From: an uncultured Candidatus Saccharibacteria bacterium
GTDB taxonomy: Bacteria > Patescibacteriota > Minisyncoccia > Phycocordibacterales > UBA9973
Assembly: GCA_964625065.1 (NCBI GenBank)
Contig: CAZUZL010000001.1
Span: 40,132 to 104,131 of the forward strand
Direction: 5' to 3'
DNA: 64,000 nucleotides
Shown piece by piece: positions 32,500 to 39,537 of this stretch (positions within the stretch are counted from its first letter, which is position 1; each line of letters opens with the position of its first letter). A program made the translations under genes and the position numbers. The notes below the pieces were generated by a model. That model saw only the letters and a list, made by a program, of their open reading frames with translations, searched no databases and was not told the DNA's origin.

Positions 32500-34263
32500 C
32501 TAGCCCAGTGTTGCCTTTAGGCGGCGCACTCCTTGTGAAACCGATTCTTCTTTACCTATTGTTACGTGGCCTATGTCAGCTGTATTTGTAACGTGTGGCC
32601 CACCACAGAATTCTTTCGACACATACGCATCAGCAGGGTCCTGTATTGTATAGACACTAACTACGTCTGGGTACTTGGCACCGAACTCCATTTCTGCACC
32701 CAGTGCCTCTGCCTCGGCCTTTGGCATTTCGCGACGAATAACGGGTAAACCTGCACTGACCCAACCGTTTACCAAGTCTTCTACCCTTTTCTTTTCTTCG
32801 TCTGTTACCTTTCTGTCGAATGCAAAATCTATGCGTAAACGTTCTTCTGTAATGTTACTACCTTTTTGTTTAACAGATTTACCTAACACTTCTTGCAACG
32901 CAGCTAAAACCAAATGGTGTGCAGTGTGTAGTTTTATAGTTTGTTCATTTGTATTTGCAAGGCCGCCGCGGAACATACCTGCAGATGCAGACTGAGAAAG
33001 TTTTTGGTGTTCCTTCATTTGTGCATCAAACTTTGCACGGTCTATTGTTATGCCTTTTTCTTTTGCTAATTCTTCGGTAAGTTCAATCGGAAAACCATAT
33101 GTGGTTGCAAGCACGAATGGGTCTACACCACGTTCGAATTCCTTCAAGCCTAATTCTAGTGTTTTTCTAAACTTTAATTCTTCTACTCTAATCACTTCAT
33201 GAATATGTTGTTCATTTTCATGGGTAAAATTCTTAAAATATATTTCTTTGTATTTATAGAAAAATGAAGCCACCATCTTTACAAGTGTAAAGTTACTCCA
33301 AAATCCAAGTTGGTCTGATCGTAAAACTGCTCGTCTTATAAGACGACGTAACACATACCCCTGATCTTTATTACTCGGTATTACACCGTCAGCTATTAAA
33401 AAAGTAGCTGTTCGCATATGATCCATCACTATTCTCATTAATTTCTCAGAGTACTTATCTCCTGAAATACTCTTGAGATTAATTTTTATATCTTCAAATA
33501 TATCCGTATCATATGCAGTCTTCTTGCCTTGCATTACAGCAGTTATACGTTCTAAGCCTGCACCAGTGTCTACGTTTTTCTGGGCTAGTTTACCTATTAC
33601 CTTTCCGTCTTTCTTTTCAAATTCCATGAAAACGTCGTTCCAGATTTCGATAAAGTTTTCAGATTTAACTTGTTCAACAAATTCTTCTTTACTTAAAACT
33701 TTTCCAACAAACATTTCTTCCATGTCGTAGAACATTTCAGAACATGGGCCACATGGGCCGTTGTCGCCTGGGCTCCAGAAGTTGTCTTCTGCAGGTAGTG
33801 CATATATGCGGTGTTCGGGTATACCTAACGACATCCATATATTTTTTGATTCTTCATCTAGTGGTGCACTTTCGTCACCTTCGAAAATTGTAACTGCAAG
33901 TCTGTTTGCATCTAAGCCTAAACCTTCTTCTTTGCTAGTTAAAAATTCGTAACTCCATTTTATGGCGTCTTCCTTAAAGTAGTCGCCCAAAGACCAGTTA
34001 CCCATCATTTCAAAAAAAGAAAAATGTCTGTTGTCGCCAATGTCGTCTAGGTCGCCTGTACGTACACATTTTTGTACATCAGCAATACGTGTACCCATTG
34101 GGTGTTTTGTACCCATCAAATATGGTACCAACGGTTGCATGCCGGCAGTATTAAAAAGCACCGAAGGGTCGTTTTCAGGCACAAGTGAAGCCGACGGTAT
34201 AATAGCGTGGCCCCGTTTAGCAAAAAAGTCTAAAAACTTTTTACGAATTTCTGTTGAAGTCAT
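32500..34263 (-). CDS. alaS: Alanine--tRNA ligase (short form, ~588 aa)
   Basis: N-terminal MTSTEIRKKFLDFF; class-II catalytic core; editing-domain HTAHHLV and CGGPHV motifs. The ORF-track N-terminal extension is rejected because it runs into the promoter region. Confidence 0.88.
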   Translation of the reverse strand: MTSTEIRKKFLDFFAKRGHAIIPSASLVPENDPSVLFNTAGMQPLVPYLMGTKHPMGTRIADVQKCVRTGDLDDIGDNRHFSFFEMMGNWSLGDYFKEDAIKWSYEFLTSKEEGLGLDANRLAVTIFEGDESAPLDEESKNIWMSLGIPEHRIYALPAEDNFWSPGDNGPCGPCSEMFYDMEEMFVGKVLSKEEFVEQVKSENFIEIWNDVFMEFEKKDGKVIGKLAQKNVDTGAGLERITAVMQGKKTAYDTDIFEDIKINLKSISGDKYSEKLMRIVMDHMRTATFLIADGVIPSNKDQGYVLRRLIRRAVLRSDQLGFWSNFTLVKMVASFFYKYKEIYFKNFTHENEQHIHEVIRVEELKFRKTLELGLKEFERGVDPFVLATTYGFPIELTEELAKEKGITIDRAKFDAQMKEHQKLSQSASAGMFRGGLANTNEQTIKLHTAHHLVLAALQEVLGKSVKQKGSNITEERLRIDFAFDRKVTDEEKKRVEDLVNGWVSAGLPVIRREMPKAEAEALGAEMEFGAKYPDVVSVYTIQDPADAYVSKEFCGGPHVTNTADIGHVTIGKEESVSQGVRRLKATLG

Positions 34264-34303
34264 ATGGGTATAATCTAGCATAAAAAATGGGTATAATAAA
34301 GAA

Positions 34304-34733
34304 ATGAGAAACCCCCACTCGGCCTCCCCCTTATCAAGGGGAGGAGAAAAACATCCATTTATACCATATAAAAAAGAACTCCCTGAAAAAGCACGAGAGT
34401 TAAGAAATAATGTAACAAAGGCAGAAGAAAAATTATGGCATGAAGTTTTAAGAAACAAGCAATTTTTAGGATTTAGATTTGTGCGACAAAAGCCATTGAA
34501 ATATTTTATTGCAGATTTTTATTGTGCCAAACTTATGCTTGTTATAGAAGTGGATGGTAGTGTACACAACAAAATAAAAGAACGAGATGCTGAGAGAACA
34601 GAAATATTAAAAGGAATACATAATATAAAAGTGGTTCGATATACAAATGAAAATATTCTAAAAAGAATTGGCTGGGTTAAAGAAAGTTTAGAAAAAGAAA
34701 TTATTCAAAGAGAAACTGAACTTTCACAATAAG
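34304..34733 (+). CDS. DUF559 (Vsr-like endonuclease fold) protein
   Basis: EKLWHEVLRNKQFLGFRFVRQKP...ADFYCAKLMLVIEVDG...ERDAERTEILKGIHNIKVVRY is a typical DUF559 signature. Confidence 0.7.
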
Positions 34734-34780
34734 CAGTTAAATTCCCTCCCTTGATAAGGGGAGGGTTAGGGTGGGGTTTC
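34304..34780. mobile_element. About 480-bp cassette: DUF559 ORF bracketed by ~37-bp imperfect terminal inverted repeats
   Basis: IR-L gaaacccccactcggcctcccccttatcaaggggagg (34308-34344) against the reverse complement of IR-R ccctcccttgataaggggagggttagggtggggtttc (34744-34780); each arm also holds a CCCCTT..AAGGGG palindrome. Confidence 0.55.
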
Positions 34781-34901
34781 TTGTTATTTTGCATACATAT
34801 ATAATGTATGCTATAGTCCATGTATTACCTGTCACTTCTGTGCCAGGCATTTTTATTAAAAATTAAATAATGGGGAGTTTCCCTAAAAACTAAATAAATA
34901 T

Positions 34902-36176
34902 ATGTTTGATTTAAAGACAATGAAATTGGCGATGGACCAATTGGAACAAGAAAAGAAAATACCAAAAGACAAAATACTAGAAGCTATCGAACATTCGTTA
35001 GCTGCAGCTTATAAAAAAGAATACGGAAAGAAAGGCCAGATAGTACGTTGTAAGTTTAACTTAGACGACGGTACTACTAGTTTCTACCAAGTTAAAATAA
35101 CTGTAGACGAATCTGTTGTTCGTATTGTTGCCGAAGGTGAAGAAGAAACTGAGATAGTAGCCGAAGGCGACGAACGTTCACGGTACAACGAAGAACACCA
35201 CATAATGATAGACGATGCACGTCGTATAAAGGAAAACGCTCAACTAGAAGACGAAGTTATATTTCCATTAGAAGACAAAGCCGACTTTGGCCGTATTGCT
35301 GCACAAACTGCAAAGCAAGTTATAATTCAGAAAATCCGTGATGCAGAACGCAGTACTATAATCGACGAATACGGTAGTAAAGAAGGCGAAATAGTTCATG
35401 GACATGTAGAAAAATTTGAAAACGGAATTGTATATGTAGACTTCAACCGTGCCAAAGGTATAATACCTCGCGAAGAACAAATTCCTGGTGAACGTTTCGA
35501 ACGTGGCGACAGAATCAGTGCGTACCTATTTTCTGTAGAGGAAGGCATGCGTGGAGTTAACCTACGACTGTCACGTTCACACCCACAGTTTGTTAAAGCT
35601 TTGTTTGAAATCGAAGCCCCTGAAATAGCAACTGGTGTTGTAGAAATAAAATCTATTGCCCGCGAAGCCGGTAGTAGAACTAAAATAGCAGTTTCATCGA
35701 ACGACCCACACGTAGACCCGACAGGTGCATGTGTTGGCGGACGTGGTGTACGCGTTACAACAGTAACCAACGAAATCAACGGTGAAAAAATCGACGTTAT
35801 CGAATGGTCAGAAGACCCAGCCATATATGTAGCCAAGGCTTTAGCCCCTGCAAAAGTATTAGACATACAAATAGACGAAGCTGAACACCAAGCAAAAGTT
35901 GAAGTTGCCGAAGACCAACTTTCATTAGCTATCGGTAAGGGCGGACAAAACGTACGCCTAGCAGCAAAACTTACTGGATGGCGTATTGATATCAAGGGTC
36001 AAAAAGGTGAAGTTATACAAGGAGGCGACGATATTTTCGGTGACGTAGAGGCAGAAGAAAGCGACGCTGAAATAGAAGAAACAGTTGCGGAAGACAAAAC
36101 TATACCTGAAGAAAACACAGTGACTGAAGTTCTAGAAGAAGTTGAAAAAGTTATCGAAGAAGAAACAAAAGAGTAA
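34902..36176 (+). CDS. nusA: Transcription termination/antitermination factor NusA
   Basis: S1 domain and two KH domains (GACVGGRGVRV), plus an acidic C-terminal tail. Confidence 0.9.
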   Translation: MFDLKTMKLAMDQLEQEKKIPKDKILEAIEHSLAAAYKKEYGKKGQIVRCKFNLDDGTTSFYQVKITVDESVVRIVAEGEEETEIVAEGDERSRYNEEHHIMIDDARRIKENAQLEDEVIFPLEDKADFGRIAAQTAKQVIIQKIRDAERSTIIDEYGSKEGEIVHGHVEKFENGIVYVDFNRAKGIIPREEQIPGERFERGDRISAYLFSVEEGMRGVNLRLSRSHPQFVKALFEIEAPEIATGVVEIKSIAREAGSRTKIAVSSNDPHVDPTGACVGGRGVRVTTVTNEINGEKIDVIEWSEDPAIYVAKALAPAKVLDIQIDEAEHQAKVEVAEDQLSLAIGKGGQNVRLAAKLTGWRIDIKGQKGEVIQGGDDIFGDVEAEESDAEIEETVAEDKTIPEENTVTEVLEEVEKVIEEETKE

Positions 36177-37540: not shown

Positions 37541-37780
37541 ATGACTACAACAATACAAAAATGGGGTAATAGTTTAGGGGTACGAATTCCTAAAAACATA
37601 GCTACTAATATGGGTCTAAAGGCTGGTAGTGGTGTTTTTGTTTCTGAAAAAGACGGAATTATGATTTTAGAGAAAAAATCAAAATTACTGAATCTTAAAA
37701 AAGCTATGAAAGACTACACACCTGAAAATTACCACCAAGAAGTCGACTGGGGTACCCCTGTCGGTAAAGAAATATGGTAA
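37541..37780 (+). CDS. mazE: MazE/PemI-family antitoxin (AbrB/SpoVT-type DNA-binding domain)
   Basis: MTTTIQKWGNSLGVRIPK swapped-hairpin motif. Confidence 0.8.
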   Translation: MTTTIQKWGNSLGVRIPKNIATNMGLKAGSGVFVSEKDGIMILEKKSKLLNLKKAMKDYTPENYHQEVDWGTPVGKEIW

Positions 37781-38109
37781 AAAAATATATTCCAAAACAG
37801 GGTGACATTATTCTGATATCTTTTGACCCAACAGTCGGACATGAACAACGCGGTAGTCGCCCAGCTATTGTTGTGTCTGCCACAGAGTACAACACTCGTA
37901 CTGGTATGATGCTTGTGTGTCCAGTAACATCTAAGGGTAAAGGTTATATTTTTGAAGTAAAAATTAAAGGAAATAAAATAAACGGGTTTATATTAGTAGA
38001 CCAAATTCGTTCAATGGACTGGTTCGCACGAAAACCAAAATTTGTAGAGAAATGCAAGACAGAAGAACTTTCACAAATCAAACTACTAATAGCAAGTTTA
38101 GTACAATAA
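37774..38109 (+). CDS. mazF: MazF/PemK-family endoribonuclease toxin
   Basis: YIPKQGDIILISFDPTVGHEQRGSRPAIVVS motif; 7-nt overlap with mazE. Confidence 0.85.
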   Translation: MVKKYIPKQGDIILISFDPTVGHEQRGSRPAIVVSATEYNTRTGMMLVCPVTSKGKGYIFEVKIKGNKINGFILVDQIRSMDWFARKPKFVEKCKTEELSQIKLLIASLVQ

Positions 38110-39280: not shown

Positions 39281-39308
39281 AAAAACTCCCTTAGGGGGTG
39301 TTTTTATT
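39281..39308 (+). terminator. Intrinsic terminator
   Basis: aaaaactcccttagggggtgttttt. Confidence 0.55.
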
Positions 39309-39311
39309 TCC

Positions 39312-39490
39312 CCTACTTGTGGAGGAGGTGAGCTTGTGGGTAGGGACCCGTAAGTGCAAGACCTTGAGTATCTGTAGCTAAGATGCGAAAGGTGTACAGC
39401 TTCAGTAAGAAGTGGCACTCCTGTGACGGGGTGGTGATTTACATGATTAGTCACCACCTCCCCCTACGGGTACTCCTCCTCAACAAGGAG
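39312..39490 (+). ncRNA. GC-rich structured element of unknown family, closed by a ~13-bp helix
   Basis: 5' cttgtggaggagg pairs with 3' cctcctcaacaag; internal ggtggtga/tcaccacc hairpin; direct repeat of cccctac; alternative pairing of cctcctc with a downstream ggaggag; sits between tig and clpP. Confidence 0.3.
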
Positions 39491-39537
39491 GAGATTAACA
39501 ACATTGAAAATTTCTTAAATAATGCTACTATATAGCC

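Follow-up and report, generated by a model that had tools for sequence, protein, structure and literature searches.

What does a small nuclease gene do in the divergent gap between alaS and nusA, with a structured repeat on either side of it and the two repeats inverted relative to each other? The gene lies in a 64-kb stretch of contig CAZUZL010000001.1 (the window, GC content 37%), whose nearest relatives are metagenome-assembled genomes of Patescibacteria (Candidate Phyla Radiation, CPR), several of them labelled Saccharibacteria or Paceibacteria. The gene order is alaS (minus strand, start at 34263), a DUF559-family open reading frame (ORF; plus strand) and nusA (plus strand, start at 34902), as given in a preliminary description of the locus. 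Sequence comparisons show that the DUF559 gene is physically coupled to a class of structured repeats, and that the presence of this module varies between close relatives. We read it as a selfish DUF559 nuclease with cognate repeats of the BoxC/PIT/TM_ECO type and a promoter of its own, similar in plan to the repetitive extragenic palindromic (REP) repeats and their REP-associated tyrosine transposases (RAYT), and we give this reading a probability of about 0.5.

An inverted-repeat search returned arms at 34298-34345 and 34743-34790 (48 nt, 71% complementary without gaps). Gapped global alignment of 34308-34344 with the reverse complement of 34744-34780 gave 30 identical columns out of 38 (about 79%), and the imperfect match of about 29/36 positions that had been proposed therefore survived proper alignment. 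When 5′ flanks were compared with reverse-complemented 3′ flanks for the 90 window ORFs of at least 100 aa, the DUF559 ORF had the top score (38, next best 24). The palindrome CCCCTT-N3-AAGGGG, thought to be present in each arm, is exact in the left arm (34327-34341) and has one mismatch in the right arm (34747-34761); no other site was found in the 64 kb, for which shuffling gives an expectation of 0.09. Further units or DUF559 genes were not found in the window, and so the second copy with the same repeats, for which a search had been proposed, is lacking there.

Each arm is a unit composed of a hairpin and a tail that mirrors its purine arm (Table 1). In both units the arms are 8 nt long and the loop 6 nt, and the stem is interrupted once, by a mismatch or a bulge. 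On the plus strand, the left unit consists of a C-rich tail (34312-34319), a second loop (34320-34322) and the hairpin (34323-34344), and its imperfections are one stem bulge and one tail mismatch. The tail of the right unit mirrors the purine arm perfectly (0 mismatches, T opposite A allowed). The lone A:T pair is placed differently in the two stems, and each tail has a T at the matching mirrored position. The local hairpins have energies of -15.2 kcal/mol (left) and -18.9 kcal/mol (right), while an arm-to-arm panhandle, which pairs up the AUG, reaches -63.7 kcal/mol compared with -34 kcal/mol for the two local hairpins. This architecture gives the units a potential for intrastrand triplex formation. 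A G-quadruplex was also considered for the G-rich tails and set aside, as the covariation of the mirror with the stem suits a triplex architecture better. No Rfam family covers the units, whether the region (at E up to 10), four unit-rich loci or the entire window is searched; the one match on an arm, to whalefall-1, was at chance level (11.7 bits, gathering score 37).

Repeats of the BoxC/PIT/TM_ECO class have been known in E. coli since 1992 and later in hundreds of genomes; the BoxC/PIT repeats were reportedly described by Bergler in 1992 and by Hoyne and Maher in 2000. The published TM_ECO consensus is CCCTCNCCC N3-6 GGGNGAGGG N3 GGGNGAGGG, with TTA as the second loop in type A and CCG in type B, and inverted TM_ECO pairs in E. 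coli always join one A with one B (PMC4666352). A TM_ECO oligonucleotide single strand formed a triplex in vitro, and none was detected in vivo (Holder et al. 2015, PMC4666352). The TM_ECO loci are hypervariable across E. coli strains, with no function and no nearby mobility genes reported (PMC4666352), and PIT elements in E. coli had neither promoter nor terminator activity (PMC4666352, citing Maher's group).

By their architecture, both window arms can be assigned to this triplex-motif class. They also pair unlike types, the second loop being CCG on the left, resembling type B, and TTA on the right, resembling type A; second loops vary widely among metagenomic units, and this pairing may be partly coincidence. 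The window units do not match the TM_ECO consensus and are relatives within the class rather than TM_ECO proper, because their stems (CCCTCCCT and CCTCCCCT) differ from it; a solo unit in the relative L006 comes much nearer to that consensus. In related loci, about 87% of asymmetric perfect hairpins are flanked on one side by a sequence that perfectly mirrors their purine arm, against about 7% for swapped flanks, each hairpin being read on both strands. Per strand reading, the own mirror was found in 43%, a direct copy of the arm in 10%, and flanks swapped between hairpins gave 3.5%.

A scan of metagenomes with a DUF559 alignment gave 80 loci with 81 genes, and association counts were made on the 63 genes flanked on both sides by 200 bp or more of sequence. 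Units were called with a purpose-built detector: it accepts hairpins whose arms measure 6-10 nt and that have a mirror tail, and tolerates one mismatch at most in the arms and one in the tail. The DUF559 loci held 192 units in 359 kb, compared with 0-1 in block-shuffled sequence. Unit density was 5.0 per kb within 100 bp of the DUF559 ORF and 1.6 per kb at 100-200 bp, falling to 0.07-0.13 per kb beyond 400 bp; it was 0.008 per kb in NusA loci (632 kb). A unit lay within 300 bp of the conserved core of 57 of the 63 genes (about 90%) and inside the core of none. Units were found upstream of 48 genes, downstream of 35 and on both sides of 26, and the loci bearing them were spread over all GC classes (30/31 at 35-45%, 15/17 at 45-55% and 10/13 above 55%).

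The commonest layout was a convergent doublet before or after the gene. The gene between one inverted pair, which had been taken as the design of the element, recurs in three of the 63 genes, whole doublets standing beside the gene at most related loci. In AT-rich relatives the usual order begins with a unit that has GGAGG in its 3′ arm, 5-6 nt ahead of the ATG; the ORF comes next, then a second unit and, about 20 nt on, a third unit in inverted orientation. In the lineage of the window the ATG after the first unit has been lost, and the start codon is now upstream of that unit. The called N-terminal extensions of many database homologues (PLSRGG, PPDKGGKGG, SPDKGRLGGV) are likewise translated units. 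Two further arrangements were observed: a doublet of about 128 bp present as two copies in tandem past a DUF559 gene (L252:429-645), and, in a composite-like layout, a DUF559 gene with a doublet of about 125 bp on each side, the two doublets being direct copies (L261:9-126 and 542-659). A pattern scan of IMG/VR found 20 full units, mostly in convergent doublets of unlike units; one IMG/VR contig carries a type II hammerhead ribozyme (L195:7097-7225; Rfam 50.7 bits, gathering 37) about 1 kb from two unit doublets.

The segment that holds the gene and both units is present in some relatives and missing from others. It is found in two related ENA contigs, L002 and L003, which have the same arrangement beside alaS and share with the window 95% nucleotide identity in alaS, 78% identity in the DUF559 protein and an identical right unit. 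It is missing from L005, the closest reference genome (NusA 92%, AlaS 80%). L003 reads GCATATTTGACT, GGTATAAT...GGGGTTTCTGAA, ATTCAAAAAGCGCT, and the homology of the window to L002 and L003 stops directly after GGGTGGGGTTTCT, the outer end of the right unit, after which ATTCAAAAAGCGCT follows in L002 and L003. L005 reads GCATAAAAAATG on the alaS-proximal side, CAGTTTTGC and ATTCAAAAAGCGCT, with neither DUF559 gene nor unit. Because GCATAAAAAATG and CAGTTTTGC are followed there by the common ATTCAAAAAGCGCT, L005 is an empty site relative to L002 and L003, of the kind that the preliminary description had suggested seeking by comparing alaS-nusA gaps. Of the discrete cassette with visible boundaries claimed there, the present-or-absent segment and a right edge at the end of the arm were borne out; the left edge had to be moved to about 17 nt outside the left arm, so that the segment includes the promoter box and the ATG. 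As separate observations, the gap in L005 holds a 140-aa ORF without Pfam match (L005:2806-3228, minus strand) and about 700 bp without Rfam match, in which an RNA gene had been suspected.

More distant relatives extend the picture. In L004 (NusA 70%, DUF559 50%) the DUF559 gene stands directly upstream of nusA with a different upstream neighbour; the 5′ end of the ORF contains one unit, and three more lie past the stop. A DUF559 gene at the same place but free of repeats was not seen, L002, L003 and L004 all carrying them. L004 also has an ORF-less convergent doublet of unlike units past a pyrophosphatase gene, 2 kb from its DUF559 gene (L004:5666-5754), the spacer of which resembles that downstream of the DUF559 gene. 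L006 (NusA 66%) has no DUF559 gene and carries a solo unit where the right unit is in the window, just upstream of the nusA promoter. Apart from L005 and L006, the remaining 76 NusA loci showed no DUF559 gene and no unit upstream of nusA. Elsewhere in a NusA locus, a DUF559 gene was found only in L015, which accounts for two of the five units in the whole NusA set, one on each side of the gene and in direct orientation.

The encoded protein matches Pfam DUF559 (PF04480) over residues 27-132 and profile positions 4-107 of 109 (E 3.8e-29, 101.2 bits, cut-off 20.6) and PDB entry 3HRL, a solved DUF559 protein (E 6.6e-11). An AlphaFold2 (AF2) model from 49 homologues had a predicted local distance difference test (pLDDT) score of 83.7, with low confidence only at residues 1-20. 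Its best PDB matches in Foldseek were 3HRL (E 4e-6, template modelling (TM) score 0.89) and 3R3P, the catalytic domain of I-Bth0305I (TM score 0.79), a homing endonuclease and, of the characterised proteins, the closest to it in structure. D71, E82, D84 and G85 are invariant and H88 nearly so in the 49-sequence alignment, and all are present in the window protein. The model thus supports a Vsr-like PD-(D/E)xK nuclease with a restriction-endonuclease-like fold, as had been supposed. The protein reached 60 bits against NCBIfam PRK09767, the YcjD model (E 1.7e-16), well under the equivalog cut-off of 218, and therefore belongs to a different subfamily from YcjD. PADLOC gave a weak match only (methyl-directed restriction enzyme model, 24 bits), and no defence-system assignment was therefore made.

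Between the window and L002, dN/dS of the ORF (the ratio of non-synonymous to synonymous substitution rates) was 0.20, which indicates that the ORF is under purifying selection and the protein maintained. Its dS was 0.65, about three times the 0.21 of the adjacent alaS fragment, and the module therefore differs from its neighbours in history or else mutates faster. The right-unit region (window 34733-34785, 52 aligned nt) was 96% identical to L002 compared with 83% for the ORF, and the unit is thus under constraint.

The start of the gene also bears out the preliminary description: the ATG abuts the left arm, 4 nt upstream of it, translation passes through the arm, and there is no other in-frame ATG, GTG or TTG ahead of the conserved core. 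Two -10-like boxes had been noted just upstream. Both copies of ATGGGTATAAT are indeed present (34264-34274 and 34287-34297), but only the second is specific to the cassette, the first aligning with alaS-adjacent sequence in the cassette-less L005. The arrangement TGGTATAAT-N6-ATG is also found in L002 and L003, and TATAAT-N7-ATG in L004. A consensus promoter scan found no -35 partner for the TGGGTATAAT boxes and missed them for that reason; the sole terminator-like match in the scan was weak, on the minus strand and within the left arm. With so short a distance between TATAAT and ATG, the DUF559 mRNA is probably leaderless.

Table 1. Coordinates of the features of the module (window positions unless a locus is named)
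Feature	Position	Strand	Description
Variable segment (cassette)	34291-34781, edges about +/-7 nt		Promoter box, ATG, left unit, ORF and right unit; about 490 bp
Extended -10-like box (A)TGGGTATAAT	34287-34297	+	End of TATAAT to ATG, 6 nt
Predicted DUF559 (Vsr-like PD-(D/E)xK) nuclease ORF	34304-34732	+	142 aa; residues 1-19 encoded by left unit
Left unit	34308-34344	-	Minus-strand reading CCTCCCCT / TGATAA / GGGGGAGG / CCG / AGTGGGGG, then TTTC
Right unit	34744-34780	+	CCCTCCCT / TGATAA / GGGGAGGG / TTA / GGGTGGGG, then TTTC; 12 nt past stop codon
Solo unit in L006	L006:2899-2936		CCCCTCTCC / TTTATAA / GGAGAGGGG / TTA / GGGGTGAGG; close to E. coli TM_ECO type A

In the mechanism that we propose, the nuclease would recognise the units, either as hairpin or triplex on single strands, as duplex, or as extruded doublets, and would nick or cut at them. 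Repair of the break would then copy units, with or without the gene, to new places. On this scheme the copy with the gene would be autonomous and the doublets without an ORF non-autonomous, the relation being that of RAYT genes to REP and REPIN (paired REP repeats). A PD-(D/E)xK enzyme cannot rejoin DNA, and spread would therefore have to use host repair and be homing-like rather than transposition proper. The units may in addition gate or restrain expression, the Shine-Dalgarno (SD) sequence lying within the stem in relatives and the AUG being buried here in a 5′/3′ panhandle. Breaks induced by the nuclease would account for the reported instability of TM loci.

Several observations weigh against a selfish nuclease-repeat module. 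An enzyme that cuts and cannot rejoin is not a complete transposase, and that the DUF559 protein binds or cuts the units is something we infer; the association could also come from units inserting near the DUF559 gene or regulating it. The arrangements of gene and units vary widely, and most units are away from DUF559: none of the 20 viral-contig units has a DUF559 gene within 600 bp, and one of the 18 E. coli K-12 loci adjoins one. E. coli O157 retains 11 TM_ECO copies without ycjD, the DUF559 gene of K-12. Within the window there are only two units and no sign of dispersal. At the junctions AAAAAATG|GGTATAAT and GGGGTTTCT|TGTTATT there is no target-site duplication and no common direct repeat. 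The site in L005 lacks an empty doublet, and about 1.1 kb ahead of the nusA promoter in L005 is missing from the window; for these two reasons, replacement or deletion could explain the difference in place of insertion. The alaS-nusA gap is a variable spot in this lineage, and the event may have been a gain or a loss.

The same association is seen in E. coli K-12, where the last codons of ycjD (b1289) are within a decayed unit and TM_ECO #9 lies complete on the coding strand about 170 nt past the stop. Between the stop and TM_ECO #9 there is a copy of about 40 nt of the ycjD 3′ end together with a GGGTTAGGGG remnant (NC_000913.3:1351204-1351420, L205), and this duplication suggests repeated events at the ycjD-unit junction. 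The ycjD-TM segment was present in 3377 of 5426 complete E. coli genomes; where it is missing, the eef efflux operon fills the sapF-fabI gap (PMC12817139). A clean empty site for ycjD was sought and given up, the O157 gap holding a TetR/RND (resistance-nodulation-division; eef) island and homology resuming about 45 nt past TM_ECO #9, not at the unit edge. In a published table, TM_ECO copies number 19-30 in the ycjD-positive phylogroups A, B1 and C, 1-2 in B2, 11 in O157 and 12-15 in D, and megablast counts of TM_ECO places showed no clear difference by ycjD presence. The relation of copy number to ycjD is loose and suggestive, is confounded by phylogeny, and was not used as support.

The broader proposal, which we regard as possible rather than probable, is that DUF559 nucleases, YcjD included, are a dedicated partner of BoxC/PIT/TM repeats, which occur across bacteria and in phage-like contigs, and constitute with them an unrecognised class of selfish repeat-nuclease modules, in which the mirror-tail hairpin (H-DNA-like) would be recognised and the resulting breaks would be the cause of repeat spread as well as of the hypervariable state of the loci concerned. 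Both parts, DUF559 and the repeats, are known separately, and the link between them is apparently new: no description of it was found in the open-access literature of PubMed Central and bioRxiv, an earlier report elsewhere being possible. The BoxC/PIT/TM_ECO repeats have no known function, protein partner or means of spread, and DUF559 is a very large orphan nuclease family. An association found in about 90% of the subfamily, at low and high GC and at ycjD itself, offers a hypothesis for both orphans that is directly testable in E. coli K-12.

The gene might instead be an ordinary chromosomal DUF559 nuclease for repair or housekeeping, with the units acting in cis, as SD- or AUG-sequestering hairpins at the 5′ end and stabiliser or terminator hairpins at the 3′ end, or with an enzyme that processes triplexes or hairpins for the host; the association would then reflect regulation or substrate sensing and not mobility. 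The GGAGG provided by the 3′ arm of the upstream hairpin in relatives, the ability of the window arms to close the entire mRNA in a panhandle and the purifying selection on the ORF all suit such a gene, and its position directly upstream of nusA in L004, with a solo unit there in L006, fits old vertical residence and decay. Against it stand the ORF-less doublets far from DUF559, in viral contigs and at 17 of the 18 E. coli loci, the absence of the module from the closest genome, a dS three times that of the neighbouring gene, and the inactivity of PIT elements as promoters or terminators in E. coli (PMC4666352). We consider this explanation unlikely.

Rather doubtful, in our view, is the proposal of the preliminary description that the locus is a self-contained transposon or homing cassette whose arms of about 37 bp are its own terminal inverted repeats, cut at CCCCTT-N3-AAGGGG by the encoded endonuclease. 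The inverted pair does exist and is found only once in the window, the presence/absence polymorphism has one edge at the end of an arm, the fold is related to that of a homing endonuclease, and the one-unit-per-side layout does recur among related genes. Yet the arms are two unlike subtypes (CCG and TTA) of a repeat class that is widespread and also occurs where the gene is absent, the left edge falls outside the arm, no target-site duplication accompanies it and no second copy is in the window; most relatives have whole doublets beside the gene, or direct units as in L015. An invertible on/off switch, with the arms recombining so as to turn the ORF round and detach it from its promoter and ATG, is highly improbable. 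ATG and promoter do lie outside the left arm, so that inversion would uncouple the ORF, and 'DUF559 domain-containing protein' was 14-fold enriched among predicted inversion targets in a published screen (PMC9881135), for which the simplest cause is that the repeats are inverted. There is no invertase gene in the vicinity, arm identity is only about 79%, the orientation is the same in the window, L001, L002 and L003, and the units are direct in L015.

Other features of the window were noted. AlaS (32500-34263, minus strand) has 588 aa from the start MTSTEIRKKF, much shorter than usual for bacterial AlaS; in the mechanical ORF list, alaS is prolonged upstream beyond the start of the DUF559 gene. 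A short hairpin and then a T-run separate a promoter-like site (TTTGCA-18-TATAGT with TG) from the nusA ATG (34788-34901); they have equivalents at L004:3560-3668, L005:3880-4000 and L006:2960-3077 and may form a nusA leader attenuator. An overlapping gene pair at 37541-38109 (plus strand) encodes a MazE antitoxin (PF04014, E 6e-11) and a PemK/MazF toxin (PF02452, E 8e-25). A GC-rich intergenic region of about 200 nt past the trigger-factor gene (39296-39500, plus strand) has a fold of -84.7 kcal/mol (z -4.85; 200 shuffles gave none as stable) and reached the gathering score of no Rfam family; it is a candidate structured RNA, and a weak match of the unit detector (39457-39493) belongs to this different structured region.

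Among known systems, the window units share with BoxC/PIT/TM_ECO the order of pyrimidine arm, loop, purine arm, 3-nt loop and mirror purine block, the TTA and CCG second loops, the inverted pairing of unlike types and the location in intergenic, hypervariable loci. They differ in their stems (CCCTCCC / CCTCCCCC with a TGATAA first loop, not CCCTCNCCC...GGGNGAGGG), in numbering two copies per 64 kb with a gene between them, and in that one copy is translated as the N-terminus of a protein; published work on the class found no associated mobility or nuclease gene (PMC4666352).

On the side of the enzyme, YcjD and N. gonorrhoeae NGO0050 (3HRL) belong to the same Pfam family, and both are uncharacterised. 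The ycjD locus resembles the window in having a decayed unit at the gene end, a complete one after it and variable presence among strains, and differs in the lack of an upstream unit and in the duplicated 3′ end. Vsr belongs to the same superfamily and has a similar active site of acidic motifs. It pairs with the Dcm methylase and nicks T:G mismatches in CCWGG. Vsr is however a separate Pfam family (PF03852), and nothing at the locus suggests a Vsr role. I-Bth0305I shares the catalytic fold of the window protein (Foldseek probability 1.00), and with other Vsr-like homing endonucleases it has in common a small, selfish-looking gene with presence/absence polymorphism. As in a free-standing homing gene, the locus combines a homing-enzyme relative (3R3P) with filled alleles (window, L002, L003) and an empty one (L005); the window gene differs in lying outside any intron or intein, in having no extra DNA-binding domain and in being flanked by structured repeats, and its identity to I-Bth0305I is about 20%.

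The closest parallel in organisation is that of REP/REPIN repeats with their RAYT (REPtrons), in which a single-copy gene is flanked by inverted short structured repeats, ORF-less doublets are found elsewhere and most repeats are away from the gene. RAYT, as a single-strand transposase of the HUH/Y1 type, both cuts and rejoins, whereas DUF559 is a PD-(D/E)xK family with no known joining activity, and the window repeats have a mirror tail with triplex potential in place of a GTAG-headed palindrome. No transposase of the DDE, HUH, serine or tyrosine type lies between the repeats, DUF559 being the only ORF there. Because the protein is of the PD-(D/E)xK and not the HUH/Y1 type, the module is not a member of the REP/RAYT family, and the likeness concerns mechanism only. 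The parallel in anatomy nevertheless suggests an autonomous gene copy with non-autonomous doublets, and if true it would make the DUF559 module a second case, next to REP/RAYT, in which a selfish or domesticated gene is tied to short structured repeats, here with another enzyme and a non-B-DNA motif.

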